In this document: one piece after another, positions 21,993 through 37,496 of the stretch
How the letters are laid out: the number at the start of each line of letters is the position of its first letter
Position numbering within the stretch: position 1 is the first letter of the stretch
Origin: an uncultured Alphaproteobacteria bacterium
GTDB lineage: Bacteria > Pseudomonadota > Alphaproteobacteria > Rs-D84 > CACZYB01
DNA length: 64,000 nucleotides
Assembly (NCBI GenBank): GCA_944392955.1
Contig: CALXYK010000004.1
Location: 3,419-67,418, forward strand
Direction of reading: 5' to 3'
Translations under genes and position numbers: made by a program
The notes under the pieces: generated by a model
The model's database searches: none
Told to the model about the DNA's origin: nothing
What the model saw: the letters and a program-made list of their open reading frames with translations, nothing else

Positions 21993-22010
21993 GATAACCA
22001 CAAATAAAAG

Positions 22011-22679
22011 TTAAATAAATATCTGTCCTGTTAATTTAACACTTTTAGGAAAAGCCCTAACACTGCTTTTACCACTTAAATAGATATGACCATCAACAAG
22101 GTTGTCCCCCATAAATGTCACACCATCAGCATTCACAAGATAAATATTACCAAGAACCTTAAAATTCTTAGGTATTTTTAAAAAATCTATATCTTTAATA
22201 TAAACATCGCCCAGGATACAAGTATTAGATTTAAGATAATCCAAATGCCCCTTTGAAAAAACAATATCACCTTTAACTAACAAAGTCTTAGGAGAGATAT
22301 TTTTATTTTTCAAAACAAAAGATTCTTGTGAAGTTAAAACCTGTCTTGAACAATTCTTGCCGGCACAAACTATACGATAATCATCTAAATATTTATCCCC
22401 TACATACTTTTTTAATCCCATAGTCATAGGAATATCTCTTTTAAACTCCTTACCTTCGTCATAAATATAATTCAATTTAGTAGGACGATTAAAAGGCACA
22501 AAAATATTTTCAGGTTTTTCCACCTTATTTGCAACAATATAGGCCTTTACCTTAAATTTTTCAGAATCAATAGCCGACCTGTTCAATGATTTAAGGAACA
22601 AAATACCCCCCACAATCATTAAAAACAATCCAGTAAAAACAAGCACATATCTTTTTTGTTCTGTATTCATAAGAGTCAC
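22011..22679 (-). CDS. hypothetical membrane-anchored protein with beta-rich repeat C-terminal region
   Basis: N-terminal TM helix (VLVFTGLFLMIVGGILFL). The C-terminal half contains short G-D/N-I/V-hydrophobic repeats (GDIVFSKG, GDVYIKD, GNIYLVN, GHIYLSG). Confidence 0.45.
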   Translation of the reverse strand: MTLMNTEQKRYVLVFTGLFLMIVGGILFLKSLNRSAIDSEKFKVKAYIVANKVEKPENIFVPFNRPTKLNYIYDEGKEFKRDIPMTMGLKKYVGDKYLDDYRIVCAGKNCSRQVLTSQESFVLKNKNISPKTLLVKGDIVFSKGHLDYLKSNTCILGDVYIKDIDFLKIPKNFKVLGNIYLVNADGVTFMGDNLVDGHIYLSGKSSVRAFPKSVKLTGQIFI

Positions 22680-22750
22680 CTTTTATTCAAACTATACAGA
22701 TAATATATCCTTATTTTTTTATTTGTCAAGTATTTTGTTTATAATTTTTG

Positions 22751-23632
22751 TCATATTTTAAAATCAGTCTTAACACGAAAACTTCCCAATGGGTAATTCC
22801 TGATTGGAAATATATTTTTCTTAGACGTCAATGGCATTTTTATATGCTCGCTTAGTATGGCACCCGCCACACTATCCAAACCATCATCATAACCGTTCAC
22901 ATTATCAAAATTCCATTCCGAAAACTCAGAAATAAACGGAGTTTGCCTTACCTTTTCATTAACAAATAAATATCCTGCCGAGGTAATAACATCAAAAGCA
23001 TCTAAAATCCTTAGATTTTTTGAAACTTTTGAATGTTTAGGAATAATTGTTGTAAAAATATTCATCTTTAATAATTCAGACTTCAAAAATTCTGGTAAAA
23101 ATTTACCAATTCCATTACTTTCCACATAAACAACAGGAATATGATTCCTTTGTAAAAAAGCCCCAACCTTACAACATTGTTCATGAGCAGATTGAACCTC
23201 TTGCCCATCAGAATGATAAAGGTATTCTATATCATGCAGGTAAAATTTCCCTTCTGTATCAATAAAGACGACAGAAATTACACTTCTATCACCATCTTTT
23301 GAACCATACGCAGGATCCCACCAGCAAGATACTTTTTCTATTTTTTTGCCTGCTATTGAAAAATTCAACAAATGATTCCTTTCTTCCATTAACAAATCAT
23401 CTGAATAAAAGGAAAGTTTTGACACATCAAACCTTCCCTCTTTCATATCAACAGGAATAAGCATCATTTGCGAAGAAAACTTTTTCAACCCAACCGTTTT
23501 TTTTAATTTTTCTATTTTTTCAATAGGAAATTTTTCATTCCAAACTGGTTTTCCATTTTCCATAACAGGAATTTTCAAAACATCATATCCAAAAAGAAAT
23601 GCTTCCTGATTTTCATCATCATTCATCTGCAT
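22751..23632 (-). CDS. phage large terminase, C-terminal nuclease-domain fragment (T7 gp19-like)
   Basis: RNase-H-like nuclease motifs: CWWDPAYGSKDGDRSVISVV, VVYVESNGIGK, NGYDDGLDSVAGA. These match the T7 gp19 C-terminal half as I recall it. No ATPase domain. An in-frame TAA lies immediately before the ATG. Confidence 0.8.
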   Translation of the reverse strand: MQMNDDENQEAFLFGYDVLKIPVMENGKPVWNEKFPIEKIEKLKKTVGLKKFSSQMMLIPVDMKEGRFDVSKLSFYSDDLLMEERNHLLNFSIAGKKIEKVSCWWDPAYGSKDGDRSVISVVFIDTEGKFYLHDIEYLYHSDGQEVQSAHEQCCKVGAFLQRNHIPVVYVESNGIGKFLPEFLKSELLKMNIFTTIIPKHSKVSKNLRILDAFDVITSAGYLFVNEKVRQTPFISEFSEWNFDNVNGYDDGLDSVAGAILSEHIKMPLTSKKNIFPIRNYPLGSFRVKTDFKI

Positions 23633-25136
23633 TTACAATCAACCTTTCTGGAACAGCAAATGTTTTAGCCAACCACAAGGCAACTGCCTTTTTATCAACT
23701 ATTGCCAATGCTTCTTCTCCCAACTCTGATAAAGATTTTATCCAACCTAAAATATTTTCAGCATCTCTAACCGCCTGATTTCTAGCAAGAGGTGATTGAT
23801 ATTTCAAATCTACTTCATGGCCATTAACCATGATATCGGAAATTTCACCCCTACGTCTTAATATAGAAATTGCTCTTAAAATAACTGGTGTTAAAAATTC
23901 GGATTGTAATCTTCCATAGGTTGCTCCTAAAATTCTGCTCATTTGATTTGTTCTTTCTAAAACTTCTGTCGCAGTCATTTTAGTAGTAGAAAACGAAGAT
24001 AACTGATCTACCAATAAACTATGATTTATTTTTGCCCGTAAATCTGATAAAACTAATTGAGATACATCAAAATCCGCACCAGTCCTAAGTGGTGTAAGTC
24101 CACTAGATCCAACTGCCTTTGGAATTATAGTTCCCGGAGCAAGAGTAATATTAGAAATATTTAAAACCCCATCATCATCTGCTTGCCATACACCACTAAC
24201 TGCAATACTAGCATTTTTTAAAATCAACTCCACAACTTTATTCGCAGTTTTAATATCGGGCAATGCTTTCATCACTGGCGATCTTCCATATACTTCTGAT
24301 GGAATTTTCAACCACCTGAAACAAATAAACGGAGAATATGCAAAAACACCAGTTTTCAAAACAAACATTTCATTATTTGTTAAAAGTTTATCTGCATCAT
24401 TAACAAAAGCGACATAATTATAACCTTGTTGACCACTAGGTGTAATTCTTGGCAATACTGCTTCTATAACACAAATTTTTTCATCAGGTTTTTTAGAAAT
24501 AATATTCAGCTGTTTATCATCAAATTTAAAATTAGGAAATCTAAGTTTTAAATTTTCCAAAGTCAAAATTGATTTTCTAAAAACAGTATCTAATTTACCA
24601 TTAACATTTTCTTCTAATGCAATTTCATTCATAGGAATTGCTGTAAAATTAAATGCGGTTGTTTCACCAACGCTATTTTCCTCAAATAACATTACCGCTG
24701 TTCCAACAGTAATTAAATCTAAATAACATTGATGAGCCTCAACATAAAAATTAGACCTATCAAAATGAGATTGCAAAACTTTTTGAATATCATCTAATGC
24801 CTTAAATTTTTCTTGTTTATCCCCATTATCTTTATCACAAGCATCAACACCGAAACCCAAACCAAACCATTTTGACCAAGGCGGAGTAAGTTGAGCCAAT
24901 AAACTACCTGCTAATTGTTCCACACCAGATTCAGCAGTAGAATCAAAAATATCAACATTTTTCTTTTTACCATTGGAAATAGAAGTAAATAAACCACTTT
25001 TTTGAGGCAGTGCATAATCATAACATTCACTCCAATGATTTTCCCATTCGGCCCTTTTTTCCATGGCTTTCTGATATCTAGCATAGATTTTAAAAAGTTC
25101 TGTTTCATCAACAATATATTTATTATTTTCAATCAT
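23619..25136 (-). CDS. phage portal / head-to-tail connector protein (T7 gp8-like)
   Basis: 505 aa. The N-terminal pattern (YARYQKAMEKRAEWENHWSECYDYALPQ ... LAGSLLAQLTPPWSKWF) parallels T7 gp8 (YERLKNDRAPYETRAQNCAQYTIP ... LASKLMLALFPMQTWM) as I recall it. Confidence 0.75.
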   Translation of the reverse strand: MIENNKYIVDETELFKIYARYQKAMEKRAEWENHWSECYDYALPQKSGLFTSISNGKKKNVDIFDSTAESGVEQLAGSLLAQLTPPWSKWFGLGFGVDACDKDNGDKQEKFKALDDIQKVLQSHFDRSNFYVEAHQCYLDLITVGTAVMLFEENSVGETTAFNFTAIPMNEIALEENVNGKLDTVFRKSILTLENLKLRFPNFKFDDKQLNIISKKPDEKICVIEAVLPRITPSGQQGYNYVAFVNDADKLLTNNEMFVLKTGVFAYSPFICFRWLKIPSEVYGRSPVMKALPDIKTANKVVELILKNASIAVSGVWQADDDGVLNISNITLAPGTIIPKAVGSSGLTPLRTGADFDVSQLVLSDLRAKINHSLLVDQLSSFSTTKMTATEVLERTNQMSRILGATYGRLQSEFLTPVILRAISILRRRGEISDIMVNGHEVDLKYQSPLARNQAVRDAENILGWIKSLSELGEEALAIVDKKAVALWLAKTFAVPERLIVNADE

Positions 25137-25157
25137 ATTAAACCTCTTTTTTTATTG

Positions 25158-25190
25158 ATTAAAAAAACTCCTAAGATTAACTTAGGAGTC
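25158..25190 (-). terminator. rho-independent terminator downstream of ftsZ
   Basis: On the minus strand: GACTCCTAAG-TTAAT-CTTAGGAGT followed by TTTTTTT. Confidence 0.55.
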
Positions 25191-25212
25191 ATTTGAAAAT
25201 ATTTATTATTTA

Positions 25213-26928
25213 TTAGTTATTATTCTTTTTAAATATTGCTGGAATTTCCAAAGTTTCTTCCATTTTTTTTATCATTTCCATCAAATCAGTCTGTTGACTT
25301 TCTCTTTTCTGTTCATCCAAACTTCCAGCCAAAAATACCACATTATCATCTTCTTTTTTTTCTTCTTTCTTAGAAATTGTGAAATCCAATTCTTTATCCA
25401 AAGATAACTTTACATCTTTATCACTACCAAAATTTTCTACATCATCAAAGAAATTATCTTCCTTTGATTCACCTAATAAATCAAAGAATGATGACAAAGA
25501 ACTTTTCTTTTTACCATTTCCACCACCATTGTCCGGAGGAGTTGGTTCATCATCATCATTATCTTCTTTTTTTGCAACCAAATCCATAGGTTCAGATTCG
25601 GAAATTTTTTGTGCTTCTCTATTTATAAAATCATCAATACTAGAAGGTGTATTTTGTTTTATAAAACTATCAAAGGAGTTTTCCTTTTCAAAATTTTCCA
25701 CTTCCTCCGTATTTTCAGAAAACAAAGCATCTGCTCCAAAATCACCTAAAACATTTTTTACATCTTTATCAAAAGTATCATCTTTAATAGGTAATGGTTT
25801 TTCCTCATCTTGACTATTTATATCATTATCAAACGAAGAAAAAGATGAGGTTGTTTTTTCAATACTATTATATGTATTAACATTTTCCTTCATACTGGGA
25901 AAAGTATTTAACTCATCTCTATGAATATTTTTTATTCCTACATTTTCAGATAATCCAGTTGCAATTATCGCGACCTTTAATGAATCGTCCATAGATACAT
26001 CAAAACAAGTTCCAAGATAGAAATTTGTATCATCACTATCAATAGAAGCCCTAATAGTATTCATAACTTCGGCAGGTTCGTCCAAGGATAAATTTTCAGG
26101 ATTAGCCGTTATGTTCACAAGGACTGATTTTGCCCCCCTTATATCATTTCCTTGAAGCAAAGGATTTAACAAAACACCTTCTACTGCCTTTAATGCCCTA
26201 TTTTCGCCACGTTGAACCGAAGTTCCTATTAAAGTTCTACCACTTTTTTCCATTACCGCACGAATATCAGCAAAATCCAAATTTATTGTTCCAGGAATTC
26301 TTATCAAATCGGTAATATTTCTAACTCCGTCATAAAGGACATTATCAGAAATTTTAAACGCATTCAAAAAAGTCATCTGTTTATCAACAACATTATAAAG
26401 ATTCTGATTAGGCAAAACTATATAAGAGTCGACATTAGGAATTAAATTATCAATCGCATCTTTTGCAATTTTTTCCTTCTTTTTCCCCTCAAAATCAAAC
26501 GGCGTTGTTACAATAGCAACGGTTAAAATACCCTTTTCCTTTGCAATAGAGGCAATCACAGGCAATGCACCACTTCCTGTTCCCCCACCCATACCAGCAG
26601 TTAAAAATAAAATATTTGAATTTTTGATTAAATCAGCAATTTCACCACTTGATTCTTCTGCTGCCTTTTGACCTATTTCAGGTCTAGAACCGGCACCAAA
26701 ACCTTTCGTAGTTTGCTTTCCCAGTTGGATTTTTTTCGGCGACTTTGATTGTAATAATGATTGAGCATCAGTATTGGCAACAACAAACTCTACACCATCA
26801 ATTCCCTGCTCTATCATATTATTAACAGCATTACAACCAGCACCACCAACCCCCATTACCATAATTTTTGGAATAAAATTTTGAATCTCATCATCAAGAG
26901 ATTTATAACCAAAATTTCCATCAAGCAT
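25213..26928 (-). CDS. ftsZ: cell division GTPase FtsZ
   Basis: Tubulin signature GGGTGSGA, GVGGAGCNAVN, T7 loop NLDFADI. Long disordered acidic linker. Conserved C-terminal FtsA-binding peptide (LEIPAIFKK). Start set at the Met preceded by AAGGGGGA. Confidence 0.95.
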   Translation of the reverse strand: MLDGNFGYKSLDDEIQNFIPKIMVMGVGGAGCNAVNNMIEQGIDGVEFVVANTDAQSLLQSKSPKKIQLGKQTTKGFGAGSRPEIGQKAAEESSGEIADLIKNSNILFLTAGMGGGTGSGALPVIASIAKEKGILTVAIVTTPFDFEGKKKEKIAKDAIDNLIPNVDSYIVLPNQNLYNVVDKQMTFLNAFKISDNVLYDGVRNITDLIRIPGTINLDFADIRAVMEKSGRTLIGTSVQRGENRALKAVEGVLLNPLLQGNDIRGAKSVLVNITANPENLSLDEPAEVMNTIRASIDSDDTNFYLGTCFDVSMDDSLKVAIIATGLSENVGIKNIHRDELNTFPSMKENVNTYNSIEKTTSSFSSFDNDINSQDEEKPLPIKDDTFDKDVKNVLGDFGADALFSENTEEVENFEKENSFDSFIKQNTPSSIDDFINREAQKISESEPMDLVAKKEDNDDDEPTPPDNGGGNGKKKSSLSSFFDLLGESKEDNFFDDVENFGSDKDVKLSLDKELDFTISKKEEKKEDDNVVFLAGSLDEQKRESQQTDLMEMIKKMEETLEIPAIFKKNNN

Positions 26929-27033
26929 TTTTTCCCCCTTTTGACTTCTTTCCTTAATTATATCATAAAAAAAGGTAAAAGTTAAGAGATAAAAACATAA
27001 AAACAAATAATTTTATTTTTTTAAGCAAAAAAA

Positions 27034-27486
27034 CTAAGAACCAACAAAATTGTCCAATGCCTTTTTGCATGCCTCCGAAGCATCTATCAACTTATTTATA
27101 TTAGAAAGAGCACCAGCAGACACACCAAGAGACAATACATTCGCACCTGTTGCAATACCAGAAGAAACCAAAGAAATAGTTCTATTTTTTTCTAGATTTT
27201 TCATATCATCAATGTCTATTTCTCCAGAACTTTTTGCTACATTATTAGCAGATAATGCAGTTGAAGTAGCAGATCCAGCCGTCGCAACAGCCGAAGTAAC
27301 ACCAGTTGTAATAGATTGAGCCTTCAAACTATTCAAAACAGATCCATCAAATTTACATGCAGAAATCACATCTGAAATATATGGTTCTTTCTTTCTTACA
27401 CTATCCGAAGATAATTTTGCCTCTGCACCAAAGGATAAAAAAGAAGCCGACACAACAAAAACTAAACTATAAGATAAAAACTTCAT
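27034..27486 (-). CDS. secreted Ala/Ser/Thr/Gly-rich protein
   Basis: Start at the Met with a GGAGG ribosome-binding site. Signal peptide MKFLSYSLVFVVSASFLSFGAEA. Low-complexity A/S/T/G segments. The C-terminal motif is similar to the C-terminus of the upstream 612-aa protein. Confidence 0.5.
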   Translation of the reverse strand: MKFLSYSLVFVVSASFLSFGAEAKLSSDSVRKKEPYISDVISACKFDGSVLNSLKAQSITTGVTSAVATAGSATSTALSANNVAKSSGEIDIDDMKNLEKNRTISLVSSGIATGANVLSLGVSAGALSNINKLIDASEACKKALDNFVGS

Positions 27487-27487
27487 T

Positions 27488-29326
27488 TTAATCCTCCATT
27501 CCACTAACTTCTGCATTATATGATGAATAAGCATTATTTAAGGTTCTAATACTATCTTCACATTGTTTTAAATTTGTTATTGCATCTTCTATCGTAGCAA
27601 GGGATACAAAACTTACAACAGATGCAGTTCCACTAGCAAGAGACGAAGCCGCACTTAACCCAACCTGCCATTTATCAAAATCTTTTGCTGAAGCCAAAGC
27701 TTTACCACTAGCATCTCTTAACTCATGTATTTTTGTTTTATTACTCTCTACTATTGCTTGTTTACTTGAGATAGATTCTAATTCTGCATTTTTTTGAGCT
27801 AAAAGTTCATTTTTATTTATTTTTTCGCTCTCTTTTTCTTGTTTAACCTCATTTTCAATTTGTCCTGGTTCAGATTTTTCAAGTTGGTCATTAACATCTT
27901 TTAATTTAATATTTAAATCCTCAATAACCTTGTCTATATTATCCATTTGGGACTTATAGTCATTACATTTATCAACATTTTCCTTTGCATCGTTTATTTT
28001 ATTATTTAACTCTTTTATTGTTTTTTCCTTCTCTTCCTTCTGGGATTTTAATTTGGAAATGGCACTCATTTTAGCTTCCTCTAATGCAGAATCTGTTTCA
28101 TTATTATCAGCATCCAATTCTCCCAAATCTTTCATAAGGACATCTATTGAATCATTAAGCCCCAATACCGCCTTTTTTGCATTTGCCAAACTTTCTTCAT
28201 TTGTTTTGTTGTCTGAAAGTTTATTTTCACAGGCTAAATTATTATAACTATTCTTAATAGTCGTTTGTTCTTTTTTTTGTTTTGCAATAACTTGCTCTAA
28301 AGCATCTTTTTCTGCTGTTAATTTAGTTTTTCTATCTTCTATTGTTCCATATTTAATAGTAGAAACTCCATTCAAATCTGTATTTTTTGATAAAATAATT
28401 TGTCCCTCTTCCAAATTTGATATATCACTATCAATAGACTCTATTTCTGTATTTAACTTAGCTACTTCTCTTTCTAACTTTTCTTTCTCCCCATCCAAAC
28501 CTTGACCTATACTTGTATTTTTAGTTCCAAGGCTCTTCTCTGCATCGTGATAATAAATTGCATCTTTTGTATTTTTAAGTGATAATGCACCAACAACTGT
28601 GCTACCTGTACTTAACACACTACCAACACCAGATGTCAAGGAAACCCCATAAGTTATTTGGGATTTAAGTTTTTCCATATCATTCACAAATGCACCACAT
28701 TTTTCTCGTGCAGTTTGAACTGCTGAATTTATTTTTTTCTCATATTCTGAAACATCAACAAAAATCTCGCTTTCCAAATACATAGAGGCGATTAAATTTC
28801 CCGCCCTTGTTACATAAAGTTTTCTTCTATCCGAAGATAATCCAGAGTTATCAACAACCGAACTAATCTGTGAATTTGTTCCATTTAACAAAGAAACCGA
28901 ATAACTATATTTAGGAAGCAAATCTACACATTTTATCTCCCCTTCCGCAGATACAACATCCATCGCCCCCGAAGAATCCATTCCAACCAATTTCATATAA
29001 GGACCGAAACAAAACTTTTCATCCAATTTAGCCGTTCCATTAGTATAATAATAATTATATACTGATGGTAATAACATAGTACTTAAACTATACGATTCAT
29101 CATAATATAATTTATCCAAATGCACCGAGTTTAAAAACCTTAACACAGATCCAGAAATATCCGAAGAATTAGAAGAGGAACTTGACGAAGTCGTACGTCC
29201 CGAAGATCTGCTATTTGGACTTCTACTGCCACCTGAATTAACTACACGAGCAGCGAACAATCCTCCATCTGAAAACAAATAAGATAAAAAGACCAATCCA
29301 CAAAGTAAATTAAACTTCTTTTTCAT
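27488..29326 (-). CDS. large secreted coiled-coil protein
   Basis: Signal peptide. Ser-rich low-complexity stretch. About 300 aa of Lys/Glu-rich heptad-like coiled coil. C-terminal A/S/T-rich domain. Confidence 0.55.
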   Translation of the reverse strand: MKKKFNLLCGLVFLSYLFSDGGLFAARVVNSGGSRSPNSRSSGRTTSSSSSSNSSDISGSVLRFLNSVHLDKLYYDESYSLSTMLLPSVYNYYYTNGTAKLDEKFCFGPYMKLVGMDSSGAMDVVSAEGEIKCVDLLPKYSYSVSLLNGTNSQISSVVDNSGLSSDRRKLYVTRAGNLIASMYLESEIFVDVSEYEKKINSAVQTAREKCGAFVNDMEKLKSQITYGVSLTSGVGSVLSTGSTVVGALSLKNTKDAIYYHDAEKSLGTKNTSIGQGLDGEKEKLEREVAKLNTEIESIDSDISNLEEGQIILSKNTDLNGVSTIKYGTIEDRKTKLTAEKDALEQVIAKQKKEQTTIKNSYNNLACENKLSDNKTNEESLANAKKAVLGLNDSIDVLMKDLGELDADNNETDSALEEAKMSAISKLKSQKEEKEKTIKELNNKINDAKENVDKCNDYKSQMDNIDKVIEDLNIKLKDVNDQLEKSEPGQIENEVKQEKESEKINKNELLAQKNAELESISSKQAIVESNKTKIHELRDASGKALASAKDFDKWQVGLSAASSLASGTASVVSFVSLATIEDAITNLKQCEDSIRTLNNAYSSYNAEVSGMED

Positions 29327-29454
29327 AACTAATTCTCCTACCTCTATGCTCTGTATGATAGCATATTTTTAGGCTTATATCAACAGATTATTACAATTAT
29401 TTACTTTTTTTGTTGCGTTTTGCTAAAATATCAGTTATAAATTACCTGTCCTTG

Positions 29455-29531
29455 TGGCAAGGTAGCTCAGTCGGTAGAGCAAAGGACTGAAAATCCTTGT
29501 GTCGGCGGTTCGATTCCGCCCCTCGCCACCA
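29455..29531 (+). tRNA. tRNA-Phe (anticodon GAA); the 3' acceptor strand looks irregular
   Basis: Manual cloverleaf. D-arm GCTCAGTCGGTAGAGC. Anticodon stem AAGGA/TCCTT with loop CTGAAAA. T-arm GGCGG-TTCGATT-CCGCC. By my count the acceptor has an A4-C69 mismatch and one extra C between the T-stem and the 3' acceptor strand. Confidence 0.8.
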
Positions 29532-29538
29532 AAAAATC

Positions 29539-29570
29539 AACTCCTTACTTCAAATGTAAGGAGTTTTTTC
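29539..29570 (+). terminator. rho-independent terminator after tRNA-Phe
   Basis: Hairpin CTCCTTAC-TTCAAAT-GTAAGGAG followed by TTTTTT. Confidence 0.5.
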
Positions 29571-29584
29571 ATAAATACATTTTA

Positions 29585-29765
29585 AACATCTGGTTCGTAT
29601 ACTCGTATAACACGCTAAGCCAAAAAAAATCCCCTGTTGCGAGGAGAGAACACGAACGAAGTTGTTCTTAATGACGAGCGGTGTTAGCGAGGAATTTTAG
29701 AACATCTGGTTCGTATACTCGTATCACCCGCTAAGCCAAAAAAATCCCCTGTTGCGAGGAGAGAA
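29585..29765. repeat. two ~66-bp direct repeats (29585-29650 and 29701-29765), the second ending in a stem-loop
   Basis: The units read AACATCTGGTTCGTATACTCGTAT(A/C)AC(A/C)CGCTAAGCCAAAAAAA(A)TCCCCTGTTGCGAGGAGAGAA and differ at 3 positions. In the second unit CCCCTGTTGCG pairs with CGCAACAGGG at 29788-29797 around a GA-rich loop. Confidence 0.6.
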
Positions 29766-30134
29766 GGAGGAAAGGAGAGAAAAGGAACGCAACAGGGAAT
29801 AACTTTGAAAATAAATTTAAAAATATACTTAAATTCACTTCACATTCTCGATTCTTAATATACTCGACAAAAAAAGTCAAGCGATTCTTTTTTTGGCTAT
29901 TTTTTAAAGTGATTTAAAAAGCAAAAAAAACACTAAAATCAAATAGTTAAAAAAATGATTTTTTTTAATAAGAATCAATATTGTCTATAAAAATCTACTA
30001 TCTAAAAGAAGCAAAAACACGATTCTTTTAACACAAAAAAAGAATCGACTCCGAATCTTTTAAAACACAGTAAAGTTTTAGCAATTTAATTACCAAATAG
30101 CAAATAAAAAAACACATTTTTACAAAAAAAATAT

Positions 30135-30232
30135 CCCTTAAGTCGAGGAGAGAGAGAAAATAAGGAGGGAATGACTTAAGGGATCTTCGGTTTTCACCGA
30201 ATTTGCCGAAATGAGGGGTCGTCTCGGCAAAC
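30135..30232. other. cluster of three consecutive hairpins in non-coding DNA (candidate structured RNA or recombination site)
   Basis: CCCTTAAGTC-(28-nt GA-rich loop AGGAGAGAGAGAAAATAAGGAGGGAAT)-GACTTAAGGG; TTCGG-TTTTCA-CCGAA; TTTGCCGA-AATGAGGGGTCG-TCTCGGCAAA. Confidence 0.4.
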
Positions 30233-30351
30233 TTTATATTCGTATTAACGAATTGCCTTCATTATACAAATCATTTATACTTTGTCAAGATATTTTTGCA
30301 AAAATATTTTTTCTGTATAAAACAATATAAAAATTCCCATAAAAACAACAA

Positions 30352-30951
30352 CTAAACTTTATATATTGTATCAATAGTATGTGGCGTCCCTATAAAAATT
30401 TGCATACCATCTGGAACTAAAATAAAATTGTATTCCAGTAATCTCTCCCTTAAATCAAGCCTTTTTTGATATGTATCACAATTTTTGGGAACCTCTACAT
30501 CATCAAAAATTATAACATCCGCCCTACTTCCCGTCGCATTAGACAATAAGCCAACTGCTAACATAGAGGGATCCCTTAACTCCTTACTTCTCACAACGGT
30601 AAAACTACCAGACGCCCAATCTGATTTTTTCTTTGGCCTAATATCTTCCATTAAAGGATTAACCTCTATAATACGTTTTACATTTTTAACCATTTTTCTC
30701 GCTAACATAGTATCAGCAGCCACCACCAAAATTCTTGTATTAGGATTTTTATACAAAAGCCAAGCACAAAATATTCCAACAATAGTTGACTTCCCACTAC
30801 TTCGAAAAGCCATCAACAAGCCCCTTTTTTTATCTGATAAATAGATACTTTCAAGCCATTTTGCAATTTTAATATGATGTTCTGGCGTATCTATTTCTTG
30901 TAATTTATTCCAAGCCAACAAAAACTTTTCAAAATTTAACTTTCTTTTCAT
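30352..30951 (-). CDS. phage large terminase, N-terminal ATPase-domain fragment (T7 gp19-like)
   Basis: Walker A LMAFRSSGKST. Walker B ADVIIFDDVE. Coupling motif IFIGTPHT. Nearly colinear with the T7 gp19 N-terminal region as I recall it (LQAFRGIGKSF...RADIIIADDVEIP...YLGTPQTE). The ORF stops right after the ATPase domain. Confidence 0.85.
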   Translation of the reverse strand: MKRKLNFEKFLLAWNKLQEIDTPEHHIKIAKWLESIYLSDKKRGLLMAFRSSGKSTIVGIFCAWLLYKNPNTRILVVAADTMLARKMVKNVKRIIEVNPLMEDIRPKKKSDWASGSFTVVRSKELRDPSMLAVGLLSNATGSRADVIIFDDVEVPKNCDTYQKRLDLRERLLEYNFILVPDGMQIFIGTPHTIDTIYKV

Positions 30952-30952
30952 T

Positions 30953-31393
30953 TTATAAAATATTCAAACTATAAAAAGCAGAATCCAACAATTTCAAAGC
31001 ATCTTTGTCTTTTGAAAGTAAATTTTTGTTTTTTTTGTAATTATAATTCAATTCATTTGTTTTTAAATCTAAATCTGAAAAATAATCATTATTTTTAATA
31101 TCTTCATCTACTTCTTTTTCTATATTACCAAGCAAAACAGCCGAAGAACCATCTGTAAAATCTAAACCATTTGCAGCCATAGTAGCCTTTTTCGTAGCAA
31201 GTTTAGATTTTAATAAATCTGTTTTTTCCTGCTCATATACTTGTTGTTTCTTTTTAATTTCAGCATCTGCTAATGCTTTCTCCTGTTTGGCCATTTCTGT
31301 CGCTGCCTTTTTAGCATCATTAGATTCTTTTATATCCATAACAGTTTTTGCAACATTTGCAACACCAGCGACAACACCTGTACTTACACCCAT
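30953..31393 (-). CDS. hypothetical coiled-coil protein (possible small terminase or internal virion protein)
   Basis: 146 aa. Lys/Glu/Ala coiled-coil segment. Its stop codon is 1 nt from the terminase ATG. Function not assignable. Confidence 0.35.
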   Translation of the reverse strand: MGVSTGVVAGVANVAKTVMDIKESNDAKKAATEMAKQEKALADAEIKKKQQVYEQEKTDLLKSKLATKKATMAANGLDFTDGSSAVLLGNIEKEVDEDIKNNDYFSDLDLKTNELNYNYKKNKNLLSKDKDALKLLDSAFYSLNIL

Positions 31394-31403
31394 AATTAAC
31401 CTC

Positions 31404-33311
31404 CTACTTTATTATATCTATTAACATTGAAAAACTTAGAATTTTTAATTTATAAGGTTTTGAACTTTGTATTTTAAACAAAGGAATTTCATAATTTTTT
31501 ACAAATCCTTTACCTCGTATTCTTAAATCCCCCGTATAATAAGGCAAACTTTCATCAAAACAATTTCCACTATCAAAATTCAAAAAGACAATAGTCCTAA
31601 GCCCAGAACCTGTATCAATTTGAACTAATGGAGTATCCATAACCCTTAATGTCAATTCCAACAATCTAACAGACTTTGGAATATAACTCCAACTTATAAA
31701 TGTAGGTAATGGACAATATATATGAGTAAAAGGCAAACCAATTATAATATTTTTAGAAGTCTTAGGTAATATTATTTTATTATCTACCACTTCTAAATCA
31801 TATATATAATCATCTGCATTAACTACAACCTTTTTACCATTTAAAAATGAAAGATTTTCTACCATATCAATACCTGTTTCTGATGTAATTTTTTTAGAAC
31901 AATCACAAGAAACATCTTCATCAAAAACTTCTAAGAAATAATTACTTCCTCGTTGAACTACAACATAAACTTTATCAACCAAAACAGACAAGGAAAGTAT
32001 TTTACCATCTGTTTCATATCTTACCCAAGCATTTATATTATATGTTTTATTTGTTAACAATACAGCCAAAGTTCCATCTTCTTGAACAACATATAACATT
32101 CTTTTTTTGACATTATAATCCTGCTCAATCGGACTATTTAATAAGTGATTAGATAACAAAATTAAATCTTGCGAAGAATAATTTTCACTTAAATCACCAT
32201 AAAAAAACTCTCTTATCTCTTTTTTGTTTCTAGCCACAAAAATAGTAGAACCTTCTACTAATTTAGGGGCTATATATCTATCAGAAATAGACCCTATCTT
32301 AGTTTGTTGAGAAACTATTATATTAGACGGAGTAAGAGGACTTCCCGTAATCATCCATTCAGAGTCCGAAGTAAACACCTGTAAATGCCTACCTGAAAAT
32401 ACTGATAATATTTCATTAACCTTATCAGAAAATATATCAAACTCTATTGATTCATCATCAAGTCCGGTTCCCAAATCAAAATTCATAAAATCACCAGTCT
32501 TAGAAAACCACAACCTATTGCTTAAACTTTTTGAACCACCAATTACCAATCTATTTTGGTGAAACGCAATACTTTTAGGATAACCACGGCGTTGTGAAAA
32601 ACTCTGTTCTTGCCAATTTGCATCAGCATTAACATCGGATAAATTTGATTTTACCTCTGCATTTGCAATAGTTTCAGATTCAATAGAAGTAATAAGAACT
32701 TCTCCACCATCTAATGTAATCCTAATATTAACCCAATTATCAGAGAACAAATTTTTACTTGCTGTAATTTGAATATTACCTGTTTTTGCAGACGGAGTAA
32801 GAGTTATACCTTCTGTATCATCAAATCTATTAAATGGTTGACAAGAATAACCATAAGTTGCATTTGTAGCATATATCCAAGACGAAATTGACCAAGTTTC
32901 ATTTAACAAATCGTATTTTAATATTTGAGGTTCAATATCTGGATGAGCCAGATATAACTCACTACCTTTCTGCGACCATCTTAAATTTTTTAAATCAGCA
33001 ATCGCATACGGCGAAGTCAAAGAAGACACTTTTTCTTCATTTTCATCATAAATATCAATCGTATTATTTCCAAAAAACAAAATAAAAAGTTTTTCACTGG
33101 AATATTCAAAAGAAATTATTTTACCTTCTGTTGACAAAGTATCAACATATCTCAGACCTTCCCTTCTTTCTATTCCACCCGTAGCAATCACATTCATATT
33201 TGTAATTGTCATAGCCCCACTTTTGTAAGCGGTTGAATTTCCCCTACCAAATAAATTTCTTGATAATTCTCCAAACGAAAAGTTAGACATAGTAATAGTT
33301 TGCTTTACCAT
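31404..33311 (-). CDS. tail tubular protein B-like (T7 gp12-like)
   Basis: 635 aa. Positioned after a gp11-like gene. The mid-region pattern (ILSVFSGRHLQVFTSDSEWMITGSPLT...IFVARNK) parallels T7 gp12 (LFSEELLIWSDEAQFVLTASGTLT...VYFASPR) as I recall it. Confidence 0.6.
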   Translation of the reverse strand: MVKQTITMSNFSFGELSRNLFGRGNSTAYKSGAMTITNMNVIATGGIERREGLRYVDTLSTEGKIISFEYSSEKLFILFFGNNTIDIYDENEEKVSSLTSPYAIADLKNLRWSQKGSELYLAHPDIEPQILKYDLLNETWSISSWIYATNATYGYSCQPFNRFDDTEGITLTPSAKTGNIQITASKNLFSDNWVNIRITLDGGEVLITSIESETIANAEVKSNLSDVNADANWQEQSFSQRRGYPKSIAFHQNRLVIGGSKSLSNRLWFSKTGDFMNFDLGTGLDDESIEFDIFSDKVNEILSVFSGRHLQVFTSDSEWMITGSPLTPSNIIVSQQTKIGSISDRYIAPKLVEGSTIFVARNKKEIREFFYGDLSENYSSQDLILLSNHLLNSPIEQDYNVKKRMLYVVQEDGTLAVLLTNKTYNINAWVRYETDGKILSLSVLVDKVYVVVQRGSNYFLEVFDEDVSCDCSKKITSETGIDMVENLSFLNGKKVVVNADDYIYDLEVVDNKIILPKTSKNIIIGLPFTHIYCPLPTFISWSYIPKSVRLLELTLRVMDTPLVQIDTGSGLRTIVFLNFDSGNCFDESLPYYTGDLRIRGKGFVKNYEIPLFKIQSSKPYKLKILSFSMLIDIIK

Positions 33312-33318
33312 ATTTCAC

Positions 33319-33873
33319 CTACTTTCTTATATCCACAAGTGGGAAATTTACAAAAGATTTATTAGTTTCTTGCATACTATCAATAGATTTTGCCTCTCTT
33401 ATTTCCGAATTAAATAATTTATAAAATAAAGAATATTTACTAGTATCATTTAACAAAGAAATAGAAAGTTCAGCCGCCATCAGATAAACAAATGCAGAAA
33501 TAAACACAGGTGTAAAATATTCTTCGTTCACATTTGCAATATAATCCAAATACACCTCTTCATCATTACAATAAAGATAATTTCCTAAAATTTTATAAGG
33601 CGAATTAGAAGAAATTTTTAATGCTCGCAAAAAATCACCTGGCAAAGCATAAGAATAGCCATACTCACTTTTACTATCTTCAACAACTCTATTTAATTTC
33701 TGAGAAGCAGTCGCAAAACTCCACGAAAATATAGAAAGCAATTTATATTTTAGCGTAGAATATAAACTTCCACATATTTCAGCTTCCGGAGTTCCCTCAT
33801 CAAAAGACACAATTGCATTAGCCCCAATTTTGTTAAGGGCTTTGGAACATAAATCAATACTTGAAAAACTCAT
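33319..33873 (-). CDS. tail tubular protein A-like (T7 gp11-like)
   Basis: 184 aa. The N-terminal pattern ALNKIGANAIVSFDEGTPEAEICGSLY parallels T7 gp11 [30 protein letters not shown] as I recall it. Located between the capsid gene and gp12-like, as in T7. Confidence 0.55.
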   Translation of the reverse strand: MSFSSIDLCSKALNKIGANAIVSFDEGTPEAEICGSLYSTLKYKLLSIFSWSFATASQKLNRVVEDSKSEYGYSYALPGDFLRALKISSNSPYKILGNYLYCNDEEVYLDYIANVNEEYFTPVFISAFVYLMAAELSISLLNDTSKYSLFYKLFNSEIREAKSIDSMQETNKSFVNFPLVDIRK

Positions 33874-33931
33874 ATTATCACCTTTTTATTCAAAAGCCCC
33901 TTTATACAAAGGGGCTACAATTAACTTAAAA

Positions 33932-34189
33932 TTAAGATGCTGGTGAAATAATATCAGAAACCACTACTACACCAGAAGTAATAGAACTTACAACAAATAT
34001 ACTTGTTGTCAAAGTTCCATCTATATCCATAGAACTAACAATCAAATCGCCAACATTAAAAATATTAGCAACAGAATTAAAATAATTTTGACCAGTAACA
34101 ACAGTTTTCTCATCATCTGTTTTATAATGCCACAAAGTAAAACCATTTGAATAAGCTAACACAGATAAATTTTTAGAATTCATACTCAT
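33932..34189 (-). CDS. hypothetical small protein
   Basis: 85-aa ORF between the capsid and gp11-like genes. No motifs. Confidence 0.3.
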   Translation of the reverse strand: MSMNSKNLSVLAYSNGFTLWHYKTDDEKTVVTGQNYFNSVANIFNVGDLIVSSMDIDGTLTTSIFVVSSITSGVVVVSDIISPAS

Positions 34190-34217
34190 TTTTATATTTC
34201 CTCCTATTTAGTTTTAA

Positions 34218-35048
34218 TTAAGCAATAGTTGCATCATCATCACAAAGTATTTTAACAATACCAGTATCGTCTATAAGTTTCGCTCCTTGGCTCATACAAT
34301 TAGAAATAAAATGAGCTGCCCTTTCACCATGCCAGGTAATATCAGTTTTCACATCACAACCAGACGCATGTCCAACAGCATTTTTATGATAAATAAAACA
34401 ACTTCTTACACCTTCATTGCAAGGAAGAGCATTATGCAAAATCCAATTTATACCCATCCATTTTCTAGATTCTGTTCCTTTAAGTAATGGATAATTATCA
34501 CCAACATAATCGGCATTTGAAAATTCCTCTAAACTTAAAAGTTCATTCCATTGATGAACACCAACAACACCAAATCTTTGACCATCATCAGGCACATCAT
34601 TATTGTTAAGTATTTCCAAAGCTTGAAATATCTTTGATTTAGTAAAACCTACACCAGAAGTATCAACAGAATTAGTTGCATTGTTAAGTTCATTAATAAT
34701 AAGTTCATCACTCTTTCTACCTAAGGCATAAGCGCCAGCAGAAGCAACAACTCTTCTTTCATCTACATTTGTTTTTAATTCATCAAGTTCATCAACCCAA
34801 TCTCCTGCATAGAAATCAGACAACACACATTCAACAGGAGTATGATCTAAATTCATAACAGGAACAAGTCCGTGTCTAGCTTTTGTACTTGCAAGACCTT
34901 TACCTATTTTTTGAAAGGTAGTTGAGGTTCCTCTTACATCACTTTTTGTTCTAACAGTAGAACGTAATTTTGTTCCCATCTGTTGAAATGCAAGATGAAC
35001 TTCTGCCTCAAATTGTTTTATAAATACTTTATCAATAGAAACTGACAT
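34218..35048 (-). CDS. phage major capsid protein (T7 gp10-like, short form)
   Basis: 276 aa. The N-terminal segment (VFIKQFEAEVHLAFQQMGTKLRSTVRTKS...TFQKIG) and C-terminal segment (HKNAVGHASG) parallel T7 gp10A as I recall it. Follows the scaffold gene as in T7. Confidence 0.7.
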   Translation of the reverse strand: MSVSIDKVFIKQFEAEVHLAFQQMGTKLRSTVRTKSDVRGTSTTFQKIGKGLASTKARHGLVPVMNLDHTPVECVLSDFYAGDWVDELDELKTNVDERRVVASAGAYALGRKSDELIINELNNATNSVDTSGVGFTKSKIFQALEILNNNDVPDDGQRFGVVGVHQWNELLSLEEFSNADYVGDNYPLLKGTESRKWMGINWILHNALPCNEGVRSCFIYHKNAVGHASGCDVKTDITWHGERAAHFISNCMSQGAKLIDDTGIVKILCDDDATIA

Positions 35049-35155
35049 AATTTATATCTCCTTATTTTTTATTAAACTAACGATAGGTTAAAACCTACCA
35101 ATTAAAAAAATCCGCCATATAAATGACGGATTAAAAGTATAATTAAACCCAAATT

Positions 35156-35722
35156 TTATTTATTATCTTTCTTCACAAGAACCGGTTCTATACTACTTAA
35201 TAAGCCATGCATAGAAGTCAATGTAAATAATACAGACACAAAAGATAATATAAATATCTCAATAGAAGATCTTATCAATTGCGGTGAATATCTAGTCAAC
35301 AATAAAACATCGACATAAAATATAACCGAAAAGATAAACGATAATAAAAAAGCAATTAAAGATTGCACCTTAAAAGTGTTCTTAAATATATATTCCACTT
35401 TTAATTTTCTAGATTTAATCATAATAAATTTTAAAATCAAACACACAAATACGAACGGAACATAAAATTTTATAATAGAGAAAATAGCATCAACAACAGC
35501 AATAAAGAAAATCTCTATTGGATTCATTGAAAATCTCAATGTTTCATAAACATCCAATTCTTTCATAAAAGAAAAGGCAAAAAACACAATAACAGAAAAA
35601 ACTAATGTAAATTTTAATATTCCTTTTGTATGATTATAAAAAAATCCCAACAAAGAACCTAAAAAAGAAGATTTTTTACTTTCAACTTTCTTAGTCTTAT
35701 CGTTGGGATTTGATACCAACAA
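35156..35722 (-). CDS. hypothetical 4-TM membrane protein
   Basis: Four hydrophobic helices. No motifs. Inserted between the scaffold and capsid genes. Confidence 0.4.
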   Translation of the reverse strand: MLVSNPNDKTKKVESKKSSFLGSLLGFFYNHTKGILKFTLVFSVIVFFAFSFMKELDVYETLRFSMNPIEIFFIAVVDAIFSIIKFYVPFVFVCLILKFIMIKSRKLKVEYIFKNTFKVQSLIAFLLSFIFSVIFYVDVLLLTRYSPQLIRSSIEIFILSFVSVLFTLTSMHGLLSSIEPVLVKKDNK

Positions 35723-35730
35723 AGAAACTT

Positions 35731-35997
35731 CTATTTCTTCGCTACTTTTTTTTTTGCTACTGGTTTAACTGGCTTTTTAACAGAAGCAACTTTAACAGCA
35801 GCTTTTTTTACAACAATTTTTTTCTTAGGAGCTGCTTTAACAACTACTTTTTTTGCAGGTGCTTTTTTAGCAACTACTTTTTTTGCAGGAGCCTTTGTAG
35901 CAACTACTTTTTTAGCTGGAGTTTTTTTTGCAACTGGTTTAGAAGCTACTTTTTTAGCAGCAGGTTTTGCAGTTTTTTTAATTATACTTTTAAACAT
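35731..35997 (-). CDS. histone H1-like Lys/Ala-rich DNA-binding protein
   Basis: Start set at Met15 with an AAGGAGAG ribosome-binding site. 88 aa of PAKK/VAKK repeats (KPAAKKVASKPVAKKTPAKKVVATKAPAKKVVAKKAPAKK...). Confidence 0.6.
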   Translation of the reverse strand: MFKSIIKKTAKPAAKKVASKPVAKKTPAKKVVATKAPAKKVVAKKAPAKKVVVKAAPKKKIVVKKAAVKVASVKKPVKPVAKKKVAKK

Positions 35998-36097
35998 ATT
36001 CCTCTCCTTATTAAACAAAAGACAACTACAATATACCATATAAAAAAAAAGACTGCAACATCAAAAATAAAAAAAAGTAAAAAAAATTTAAAAATTT

Positions 36098-36685
36098 TTA
36101 TTCATCACCATATAAAAATTTAAATCCATCATCAACTTTTTTAATGAAATCTTTATCTCCATCTCTCCAATACTTTGGATCCTTCATCATTTCTTTTAAT
36201 TTTTTCTCTGTAATACCACATTGAGATTCACCAGATTTTGCCATAACTTTCGGCTCATTGGATGTCATCATATTATACAAAGCAAGCACACCATAAAACG
36301 AAGAATTCAAAGAATTATAAATTTCCTGAGGAACATTTTTTTCTGCCCACAAAGAAATTTGACGAGAAATTTCATCAAATCTTTCTTCTCCACCAAAATA
36401 ATTTTCAAGTTTTGAAAGTTCTCTGTAAGCACGAAATTCCTCTATTACTTCTTGAATCTTTGGAATCATAATTTCAGCAGCAAGGTCATAAACCAATTGG
36501 ACCTGAGCATTTGTGAAACCTGCTTCTTTTAAACGTTTATTGACATTTTGATCAACTTGTAAAAATTTATTATGAAGCACTATTTGATAGTCTTTATCAG
36601 CACCATCAGTTTTCAAAGCCAAATCTAAAACATCTGTGTTTTCACGATCAGTATTTTTATTTTGATCAACTTTTTGATTATACAT
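36098..36685 (-). CDS. phage scaffolding protein (T7 gp9-like)
   Basis: The C-terminus (ERFDEISRQISLW...KLKEMMKDPKYWRDGDKDFIKKVDDGF) parallels the T7 gp9 C-terminus (ERFDALYNHLETH...EMIKAMSDPRYRTDANYRRQVEQKVIDSNF) as I recall it. Located upstream of the capsid gene. Confidence 0.6.
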   Translation of the reverse strand: MYNQKVDQNKNTDRENTDVLDLALKTDGADKDYQIVLHNKFLQVDQNVNKRLKEAGFTNAQVQLVYDLAAEIMIPKIQEVIEEFRAYRELSKLENYFGGEERFDEISRQISLWAEKNVPQEIYNSLNSSFYGVLALYNMMTSNEPKVMAKSGESQCGITEKKLKEMMKDPKYWRDGDKDFIKKVDDGFKFLYGDE

Positions 36686-36806
36686 TTCATACTCCTTTAT
36701 TTTAAAAATTTATTTTTCAAATATTTTAAAAGGTCAAAAATAATAAAATATTTCATAGGAACCTTTTTAAATATTATTTTCATAAAACTAAAACTTTTAA
36801 ACATTT

Positions 36807-37025
36807 TTACTTTTTTTTAGAATTTAAACTATCAATTTTCTCTGTTAAAGTTGTAGAAAGTTCTTGTCCCAAAAATATTACACCAAACAAAGGAATAACA
36901 ACTTGTAGCAAATCTACCAACCCTACATCGCCAACTAAATAAGCGGCAACACAAGAAATCACACTAACAATCGCAGTAATCAAAGTTTTTTTAGTTTGTA
37001 AAAAACCACCTGTAATTATACTCAA
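36807..37025 (-). CDS. small two-TM membrane protein (holin-like topology)
   Basis: 72 aa. Two hydrophobic helices and a charged C-terminus (KKK). Confidence 0.3.
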   Translation of the reverse strand: MSIITGGFLQTKKTLITAIVSVISCVAAYLVGDVGLVDLLQVVIPLFGVIFLGQELSTTLTEKIDSLNSKKK

Positions 37026-37049
37026 TTTAATCTCCTTATTTTATTTAAG

Positions 37050-37496
37050 TTACATACAAATATCATAGAAATAAAAATCATCTATAATATATTTCGGAGA
37101 AACATTTTTAGCCCAAAAAGGACATTTCTCCTTTTTATGAAACTCAATTGCATCAAATTTTTTACTTTCTACATTATTTAAAGACAAAACATCTCCTGCA
37201 ACCTTTAAACAAGTTTTAAAGTAATCAGAATTTGTATCAATTGAATCCATATTTTTTAAATTCTTCCATGCAGGGAAAATATTAACAGATGTCAAAAGTT
37301 TTACTATATCAGGAAATGTTTCTGATATTTCCACTTCATAAAAAAATCTATTAACAATAGTCATCGCAACAGATTTTAACAAAAGATTCGAAGCATCTTT
37401 TTCCAGAGAATATAAACTTTTTGCTAAAATAAATTTGTTAATATTGGAATTTATTTTCAATTTTTTCAAAAGCTTTTCTCTATTTTCAATAAACAT
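37050..37496 (-). CDS. hypothetical protein
   Basis: 148-aa ORF. No motifs. Confidence 0.3.
   Translation of the reverse strand: MFIENREKLLKKLKINSNINKFILAKSLYSLEKDASNLLLKSVAMTIVNRFFYEVEISETFPDIVKLLTSVNIFPAWKNLKNMDSIDTNSDYFKTCLKVAGDVLSLNNVESKKFDAIEFHKKEKCPFWAKNVSPKYIIDDFYFYDICM

Follow-up and report, generated by a model that had tools for sequence, protein, structure and literature searches.

What is kept in 820 bp between a tRNA gene and a phage-type terminase gene on a bacterial chromosome? The stretch in question (positions 29532-30351) lies in a contig of an uncultured alphaproteobacterium, of which 64,000 nucleotides, hereafter the window, were analysed. Its left neighbour is tRNA-Phe(GAA), and its right neighbour is the stop codon of a 199-aa open reading frame (ORF; 30352-30951, minus strand). 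A first-pass annotation had named this ORF terminase-N, which is accurate, as the gene is real and encodes a protein with the ATPase domain alone. For the stretch itself, four options had been offered: an attachment-site (att) remnant, a dispersed family of palindromic repeats, a packaging (pac) or origin (ori)-type region, or one or more small RNAs (sRNAs). Only the last survives, and on the opposite strand from the one described: the stretch is very probably a compact locus of minus-strand non-coding RNA genes, co-directional with terminase-N, which we call sRNA-1 and sRNA-2 (Table 1). The absence of any ORF longer than about 30 codons does not hold strictly, since ORFs of 49 and 39 codons exist; neither of them is conserved, because the lengths of the homologous RNAs differ by non-multiples of three.

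Table 1. Features of the stretch and its left-hand neighbour, in window coordinates (MFE, minimum free energy; z-scores against dinucleotide shuffles).
Feature	Position	Strand	Evidence	Remark
tRNA-Phe(GAA)	29456-29531	+	ARAGORN; Rfam tRNA 70.4 bits	Neighbour, outside the RNA locus
10-bp hairpin, T-runs on both strands	29539-29565	.	Terminator scan	tRNA-Phe terminator, possible bidirectional stop
Second, truncated copy of the module X 5' flank (…GGCUUAGCGUGUUAUACGAGUAUACGAACCAGAUGUU…, first ~40 nt)	29580-29621	-	Direct-repeat family D2, alignment, downstream comparison	
Module X type A, 116 nt	29622-29737	-	nhmmer match 29734-29622, E = 5.7e-30	
49-codon TTG ORF	29731-29880	-	ORF list	Not conserved
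sRNA-2, ~107 nt	29738-29844	-	Fold z = -5.5; homologue conservation	
7 GANTC (CcrM-type) sites, consensus AAGAATCG (CGATTCTT on the other strand), including GAATCGACTCCGAATC at 30042-30057	29850-30057	.	Site count	
sRNA-2 promoter TTGACT-N17/18-(T)AAGAAT	29851-29880	-	Promoter scan	
Palindrome/hairpin CGAUUCUUUUUUUGUGUUAAAAGAAUCG, then U-run	30020-30047	-	Terminator scan; kept in 10 low-GC loci without covariation	
Promoter-like box TTGCTA-N17-(TGC)TAAAA, facing the GANTC hairpin	30076-30103	-	Pattern matches in 10 distinct low-GC loci	Weak
sRNA-1, ~130 nt	30126-30254	-	MFE -43.2 kcal/mol, z = -6.8; covariance model R1 150.9 bits	
39-codon ORF	30211-30330	+	ORF list	Not conserved
sRNA-1 promoter TTGACA-16-TATAAT, A/T-rich stretch before it	30261-30288	-	Promoter scan, 12/12 consensus	

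How are these genes built, and why on the minus strand? sRNA-1 consists of three stem-loops, SL1 (AUUCG/CGAAU), SL2 (UUUGCCGA…UCGGCAAA) and SL3 (UUCGG/CCGAA), followed by a terminator hairpin (30182-30135) that carries a 28-nt loop (AUUCCCUCCUUAUUUUCUCUCUCUCCUC) and ends in eight U residues. The invariant loop of SL2, GACGACCCCUCAU, exposes ACCCCUC and provides this RNA with a second unchanging C-rich loop (ACGACCCCUCAU). sRNA-2 comprises a 5' hairpin, the linker CAAAGUUAUU and a terminator hairpin (29797-29746) with a 31-nt loop (UUCCUUUUCUCUCCUUUCCUCCUUCUCUCCU), then seven U residues. On the minus strand, both terminator loops are G-free and CU-rich (loop 1 contains CCCUCCUUA, loop 2 UCCUCCUU), and the stems lead into U-runs (CGCAACAGGGGAUUUUUUU and GACUUAAGGGAUAUUUUUUUU). 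The hairpins had already been noticed as the stem-loops CCCCTGTTGCG/CGCAACAGGG at 29746-29797 and CCCTTAAGTC/GACTTAAGGG at 30135-30182, both of which are present, as are two further hairpins at 30185-30232 that correspond to SL2 and SL3 of sRNA-1. Their loops had been read as purine-rich and Shine-Dalgarno-like. Such loops are real on the plus strand, yet they are the antisense image of anti-Shine-Dalgarno-like pyrimidine loops on the minus strand, whose folds depart clearly from dinucleotide shuffles (z-scores in Table 1). Each RNA has a predicted sigma-70 promoter of its own, ~130 nt upstream of the right-hand hairpin for sRNA-1 and ~105 nt upstream of the left-hand hairpin for sRNA-2. The former recurs as TTGACA with TATAAT, TATATT or TATAGA in every homologue with upstream sequence to hand, and the layout of the latter is kept in 22 distinct homologues, high-GC ones included. 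A palindrome, TTGAC-N7-GTC(G/A)A, lies over the -35 element of sRNA-2 in nearly all relatives (29863-29880 on the minus strand of the window, here TTGAC-N7-GTCGA) and may be an operator for some dimeric regulator. The strand is fixed as minus because promoters, U-runs, G-U pairs and fold energies agree. One SL2 pair of sRNA-1 is G-U in 14 out of 15 sequences and two sRNA-2 pairs are U-G in 5-6 out of 15, which points to the minus strand since the plus strand would have A-C mismatches at these positions. The sense strand folds more stably than its complement in 8 out of 9 sRNA-1 and 19 out of 19 sRNA-2 sequences (27 out of 28 together), and promoter and terminator scans returned neither a promoter upstream of the hairpins nor a T-run after them on the plus strand.

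Are these RNAs conserved as RNAs? A homology search with the 199-aa protein yielded 279 relatives, mostly of 193-204 aa. Their contigs reach 365 kb and come from metagenomes of human gut, rumen and termites; some are labelled as metagenome-assembled genomes of Alphaproteobacteria or Rickettsiales. Homologous loci, about 25 distinct ones with a GC content of 29-59%, were assembled from three sources: loci fetched for six relatives of the 199-aa protein, a scan of a genome collection with the sRNA-2 loop and a metagenome scan with the SL2 core of sRNA-1. Three of the 15 matches in the genome scan (L021, L028, L033) were chance CU-rich sequences and were discarded, as were two of the 15 in the metagenome scan (L037, L039). 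Another four of the latter contain the SL2 hairpin only (GCCGGAACGACCCCUCAUUCCGGC; L041:8750, L045:1842, L049:1794, L050:2066), with an identical 13-nt loop core and the rest of the RNA absent. These four environmental contigs have 48-57% GC and an unrelated context, score 32-40 bits with covariance model R1 and give no Rfam match.

Across the related loci the same elements and promoters recur, with one locus per genome in 12 metagenome-assembled genomes. Model R1 recovers 18 full copies of sRNA-1, the one in the window with 150.9 bits and those of 17 other loci with 85-158 bits; in the window it finds only sRNA-1 and sRNA-2, and module X, described below, is weakly matched. For sRNA-1, RNAalifold on nine sequences supports 29 pairs, of which 10 are compensatory. 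With 15 distinct sequences, 99.3% of cells are paired and 10 of the 29 pairs change on both sides, seven of these among the 11 pairs of the terminator stem. Paired fraction, two-sided-change count and covariation score were each matched by none of 500 shuffles, and in slid-register controls at most 51% of cells pair. The terminator stem of sRNA-2 is 95% paired, with compensatory changes at five of 12 pairs and many U-G pairs. Its 5' hairpin is found in all 22 distinct variants with differing sequence; MAFFT was unable to align this hairpin or module X structurally, and both rest on per-sequence folds rather than on formal covariation statistics. The loops behave differently from the stems. Among 15 distinct sequences each, loop 2 is identical throughout, save for its 3' end in L019, and loop 1 varies solely in the number of CU repeats. 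Both stay unchanged although terminase-N identity drops to 57-60% and GC content spans the full range given above. Stems that vary while the single-stranded loop they enclose stays frozen mark a functional RNA acting through its loop. The arrangement of the genes varies as well: the sRNA-2 segment is flipped relative to sRNA-1 in L012, L023, L040, L043 and L048, where the two sRNAs converge, and it adjoins mipZ in L022 and L026. sRNA-1 and sRNA-2 are independent genes and not leaders of their neighbours.

What, then, are the direct repeats? They occur where they had been reported, at 29585-29650 (66 nt) and 29701-29765 (65 nt), and differ by two mismatches and one indel; a repeat finder gives wider limits (29580-29650 and 29696-29765) and a period of 115-116. 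Between sRNA-2 and the tRNA gene, directly after the sRNA-2 U-run, sits a further element, module X. It forms a long imperfect hairpin of P0 (GAG/CUC, from conserved flanks), P1 (AUACGAAC/GUUCGUGU), P2 (GUUCU/AGAAC) and the apical loop UAACACC, followed by the CU-rich tail UUCUCUCCUCG and then by a duplicate of the sRNA-2 terminator's 3' half and a U-run. The left-hand repeat is a truncated X 5' flank plus the X terminator, and the repeats exist because tandem duplication of module X doubled its junctions (the 3' half of the terminator, the U-run and the 5' flank of X). The shared motif ATCCCYTNNNNCGAGGAGAGA was found three times, always within the region, where shuffles lead one to expect 0.10. 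In a second type of X, the apical loop reads UAACCCC. The architecture is shared by 11 copies from seven loci with differing stem sequences, in which P1-P3 covary between genomes, and each copy ends in a CU-rich tail and a 3'-half terminator copy of whichever sRNA precedes it. The number of copies per locus ranges from zero to three: X is missing from the L009 group and the high-GC loci, and elsewhere one to three copies follow sRNA-1, sRNA-2 or both. The simplest reading suggested by this comparison is that X arose by tandem duplication and divergence of sRNA modules that kept the CU-rich seed. A near-identical strain (L001), found by an exact-protein look-up of the capsid gene, has at least two X units plus a partial one; its contig breaks inside the X repeats (L001:13300-13536), while the window has one full X and the truncated flank. 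A derivation of X from a tRNA, considered for the resemblance of the X loop to the 3' end of tRNA-Phe, was dropped since their relative orientation is inconsistent among genomes.

What could the loops do? Both terminator loops hold the anti-Shine-Dalgarno core CCUCC, and loop 1 holds CCUCCUUA, which is the 3' terminus of E. coli 16S rRNA. sRNA-1 and sRNA-2 may be trans-acting anti-Shine-Dalgarno-like RNAs that repress translation of other genes: their loops would bind purine-rich ribosome-binding sites on target mRNAs by base-pairing and so keep translation from starting. Action through such pairing is a plausible proposal, read from the loop sequences, though it falls somewhat short of probable. 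The cuckoo/CcsR family, like RNAIII and RsaE with their C-rich loops, has also been proposed to occlude the ribosome-binding site (PMC4615179). sRNA-1 would be expressed strongly and constitutively, as its perfect consensus promoter suggests, and sRNA-2 could be gated by methylation state or the cell cycle through a promoter embedded in GANTC sites. Perfect loop complements of 9-11 nt occur in the window at ribosome-binding sites, among them those of the capsid gene (AAAAUAAGGAG, 35068) and of a gene that starts near 56218 (AAGGAGGGAAU). Following the scaffold gene is a small gene (~35990-36025, minus strand) whose leader, GUCUUUUGUUUAA..AGGAGAGAGA..AUG, is conserved and is kept even at 59% GC (L009:3756, L012:3842, L015:3001, L016:2381, L017:3637). 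From its leader, this gene is a candidate target of the CU loops.

Is sRNA-2 under the control of DNA methylation? All seven GANTC sites of the region fall between the sRNA-2 start and sRNA-1, in the densest GANTC cluster of the window. Over 23 distinct loci with 29-59% GC, the 305 bp upstream of the sRNA-2 start contain 19.8 GANTC/kb compared to 1.83/kb elsewhere, an 11-fold enrichment that is independent of GC content. The context YGAKTCK is fitted by 64% of the cluster sites and by 20% of background sites; it is favoured by the Caulobacter sigma-70 cofactor GcrA on CcrM-methylated DNA (PMC4647560). One site overlaps the predicted -10 element of sRNA-2 (TAAGAATCG), and another lies just 5' of the -35 element (AAGAATCGCTTGACT), at about -42. 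In Caulobacter, GcrA-dependent promoters have their sites near -20 or between +2 and +30, and hardly ever at -10 (PMC4647560). Control of sRNA-2 by methylation or GcrA is a tentative suggestion that we would put below the pairing mechanism. Within the same spacer, the AT-rich palindromes CGATTCTTT/AAAGAATCG noted earlier were found at 30020-30047 and 29882/30034. The hairpin at 30020-30047 and the promoter-like TTGCTA box facing it might define a third short transcript in low-GC relatives, a weak possibility. Alternatively to a terminator, this hairpin is possibly a DNA operator containing GANTC sites. A DNA-level role of the GANTC palindromes, in methylation or regulator binding, is favoured because high-GC relatives (L017 and L019) keep the GANTC sites but not the hairpin.

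Taken as a whole, the best explanation of the stretch is a minus-strand locus of anti-Shine-Dalgarno sRNAs, with sRNA-2 possibly under methylation or cell-cycle control, and we hold it to be moderately probable. A number of points weigh against it. sRNA-1 was not found in L019, L022, L024 and L026. Transcript starts and 3' ends rest on prediction, and the -10 element of sRNA-2 is weak (TAAGAA/AAGAAT). This element coincides with a GANTC site, unlike in Caulobacter GcrA promoters, and control by CcrM and GcrA is deduced from sites in the 64-kb window and in partial loci. Target prediction by duplex energies and exact complements returned the generic strong ribosome-binding sites of an AT-rich genome and singled out no regulon, and because the predicted targets are of this generic kind no regulon can be claimed. 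Finally, Shine-Dalgarno pairing needs ~6-12 nt, and an invariance of 28-31 nt suggests an extra constraint, be it a protein partner or overlapping seeds.

The latter point leads to an alternative in which the RNAs are real and their loops are protein docking platforms, that is, a sponge or scaffold for Rho, S1, Hfq, a cold-shock or KH-domain protein or another pyrimidine-binding factor. G-free loops of this length that remain unchanged over large distances exceed the needs of a seed, and loop 1 changes in CU-repeat number only. The perfect promoter of sRNA-1 suggests stoichiometrically high levels, and module X presents the CU-rich tail again in extra copies. However, no gene for a partner protein stands consistently beside the locus, the CCUCC core suits the well-established anti-Shine-Dalgarno mode, and we know of no bacterial sponge RNA with CU tracts. 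We regard docking as unlikely.

In a second alternative, the GANTC-rich spacer (29850-30057) is a DNA-level, pac-like or regulator site for the phage-derived gene cluster in which the locus lies, and the hairpins are mere operon terminators. The locus always follows directly after the terminase ATPase gene, sRNA-1 follows the terminase-N stop codon without a separate terminator in between, and the recurring motif AAGAATCG and palindrome GAATCGATTC have the form typical of sites for terminase small subunits or regulators. The earlier pac/ori proposal is not supported for the hairpins and is improbable for the spacer; GC skew has no switch there. Yet, the GANTC cluster moves with the sRNA-2 promoter when this is inverted or beside mipZ, away from terminase-N, and no small terminase gene was identified among the scanned ORFs. 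Simple terminators would moreover need neither conserved promoters of their own nor invariant loops of 28-31 nt. These observations make the spacer explanation improbable.

Could the repeats and hairpins instead be scars of integration next to tRNA-Phe, as att remnants or as a miniature mobile element with terminators as its targets? The locus does adjoin a tRNA gene and a phage-like module, and X superficially resembles a target duplication, as it always lies directly 3' of a terminator, behind either sRNA, in zero to three copies and with a duplicated junction of 27-48 nt. Nevertheless, with up to three mismatches allowed, the 64 kb contain a single copy of the 23-nt 3' end of tRNA-Phe, and scans with Pfam and PHROGs detected no integrase, recombinase or transposase in the flanking ORFs. 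The comparison with relatives also argues against an attachment site, since the side of tRNA-Phe and its orientation relative to the sRNAs differ (L009-L012 compared to L014/L015) while the RNA genes stay in place. X lacks terminal inverted repeats and was never found outside the locus; the covariation of its stems includes G-U pairs on the sRNA strand and implies RNA-level selection, and the weak R1 matches show modules common to X and the sRNAs, as fits tandem duplication. Integration is very improbable on these grounds, and a dispersed palindromic family of the repetitive extragenic palindrome (REP) or miniature inverted-repeat transposable element (MITE) kind is not supported, with all three motif copies inside the locus and a single locus per genome. 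Least credible of all is a functional plus strand, whose loops (AGGAGAGAAGGAGGAAAGGAGAGAAAAGGAA, with five GGA in 31 nt) would act as a CsrA/RsmA-type sponge or Shine-Dalgarno decoy, GGA in hairpin loops being the hallmark of CsrB/RsmZ-type RNAs, since that strand has neither a promoter upstream of the hairpins nor a T-run after them, turns the frequent G-U pairs into A-C mismatches and folds less stably in 27 of the 28 homologues.

Returning to the sRNA locus as the preferred explanation, where in the genome does it stand? The large terminase is encoded by two genes 6.7 kb apart, an ATPase half (the 199-aa protein) and a nuclease half of 293 aa (22751-23632, minus strand). Between them lie the RNA locus, tRNA-Phe, two uncharacterised genes, ftsZ and a T7-type portal gene; the nuclease-half gene comes directly after the latter, which overlaps its start by 14 bp. 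The split is kept in relatives down to 57% identity (L009-L019, L034), whereas the viral contig L008 has a fused gene, and the RNA locus is always at the split point. A decayed C-terminal half of the terminase in the stretch itself was considered and rejected, as tblastn with a full-length relative places that half at 22865-23599, 6.7 kb off. The surroundings (~21300-38500, minus strand) form a chromosomal T7/BPP-1-like cluster with scaffold, capsid (PF19821), tail tubular A and B, internal-virion/fibre-N, portal, Bbp19-like and helix-turn-helix genes. ftsZ and mipZ are embedded in or adjoin this cluster, a synteny kept in many gut alphaproteobacterial metagenome-assembled genomes. Pfam and PHROGs scans revealed no replication genes in it, and from its gene content it looks like the locus of a domesticated particle, similar to a gene transfer agent. 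The literature searched contains no description of a T7-like split-terminase cluster beside ftsZ. The two genes between tRNA-Phe and ftsZ encode a 612-aa protein with a signal-peptide-like N-terminus (27488-29326, minus strand) and a 166-aa protein (27034-27534, minus strand). Neither matches Pfam or PHROGs, and an exact-protein look-up of the 612-aa protein returned no record; in distant relatives, both co-occur with sRNA-2, mipZ and a 222-aa cluster protein. Two tandem repeats lie elsewhere in the window. One is a 30-bp unit in 4.7 copies (79% matches) at 35796-35935, in or near small ORFs just downstream of the scaffold gene. The other is a large array of 90-, 75- and 165-bp repeats at 49836-50769, in the most GC-rich part of the window, and probably is a repetitive coding region on the minus strand.

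What does the locus add? It contributes two, and possibly three, RNA families that Rfam lacks and that covariation backs; their host, an uncultured lineage of alphaproteobacteria from gut, rumen and termites, has no known RNA regulators. Their design is unusual: a very long invariant pyrimidine loop serves as the putative seed inside a terminator hairpin, X add-ons repeat the CU tail, and one promoter is saturated with CcrM sites. The RNAs mark the exact ATPase/nuclease split of a large terminase within a T7-like head-tail cluster beside ftsZ and mipZ. Should they regulate this cluster or cell division, phage domestication and epigenetic control of the cell cycle would be linked through them to RNA regulation. 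As a more speculative extension, which we consider a long shot, the two RNAs and X might be the core of an undescribed clade-specific regulatory unit of gut alphaproteobacteria. Its invariant 28-31-nt loops would be mimics of the 16S 3' end or protein-binding loops, with one RNA constitutive and the other gated by CcrM and GcrA. Such a unit would tie translation of the domesticated T7-like particle cluster, with its two-piece terminase and no replication genes, to ftsZ and mipZ, and the cluster may be a new kind of gene transfer agent.

How does the locus compare with known RNA families and elements? At the gathering threshold, Rfam 15 recognises three tRNAs only in the 64-kb window. With E <= 10, the tRNA alone is significant in the region, the 12 other matches being sub-threshold chance hits (uup, ylbH, PyrR etc.) without any alphaproteobacterial sRNA among them. 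Permissive thresholds on six related loci likewise gave only tRNAs as significant matches, and nothing at E <= 1 in three divergent loci. A blastn search of the 820 bp against a phage database gave no match, and no description of these RNAs was encountered in the literature searched. Rho-independent terminators share with the two hairpins a G+C-containing stem and a 3' U-run at the end of a transcription unit. Ordinary terminator loops are normally 3-8 nt long and not conserved in sequence, whereas those described here measure 28-31 nt, are invariant in 15 distinct sequences each and have their own promoter ~80-130 nt upstream. GGA sponges of the CsrB/RsmZ type were discarded as relatives, since neither a promoter nor a terminator surrounds the hairpins on the plus strand, and wobble pairs and fold energies favour the minus strand. 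The promoter region of sRNA-2 resembles Caulobacter CcrM/GcrA promoters (e.g., ftsZ, mipZ) in its clustered GANTC sites, 64% of which fit YGAKTCK, and the locus is physically linked to ftsZ and mipZ; it differs by the site on the predicted -10 element and by up to 7-10 sites in 300 bp. AbcR1/2 (alpha-r15), RsaE/RoxS and RNAIII pair with Shine-Dalgarno sequences through unpaired C/U-rich loops (CUCCCA, CCCC, UCCC), to which the SL2 loop ACGACCCCUCAU is similar. However, they show no sequence or covariance-model similarity to the RNAs described here, belong to other host lineages and have much shorter loops.

The closest counterpart in kind is the cuckoo/CcsR/alpha-r14 family (RSs0680a-d, SmrC14, NfeR1) of Rhodobacterales and Rhizobiales, which is modelled as two to four neighbouring hairpins, each of 24-50 nt, whose loops measure 9-27 nt and each carry the motif CCUCCUCCC (PMC4615179). 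Common to both are the alphaproteobacterial host and tandem repeated modules, the X modules being comparable to those of CcsR and cuckoo. Also shared are freely varying stems with a CU-rich anti-Shine-Dalgarno loop as the sole conserved sequence, for which occlusion of the ribosome-binding site was proposed (PMC4615179). In contrast, CCUCCUCCC is absent here from both loops and from SL2, and the loops of 28 and 31 nt in hairpins of 48-52 nt fall outside the range of 9-27 nt. Moreover, each RNA described here has one hairpin with a long CU tract, and its seed loop lies inside the terminator hairpin. There is no covariance-model match either, the upstream DUF1127 gene was not seen here, and the genomic context is another one. 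sRNA-1 and sRNA-2 form a new sRNA locus, which is of a known functional kind and has an unusual architecture.

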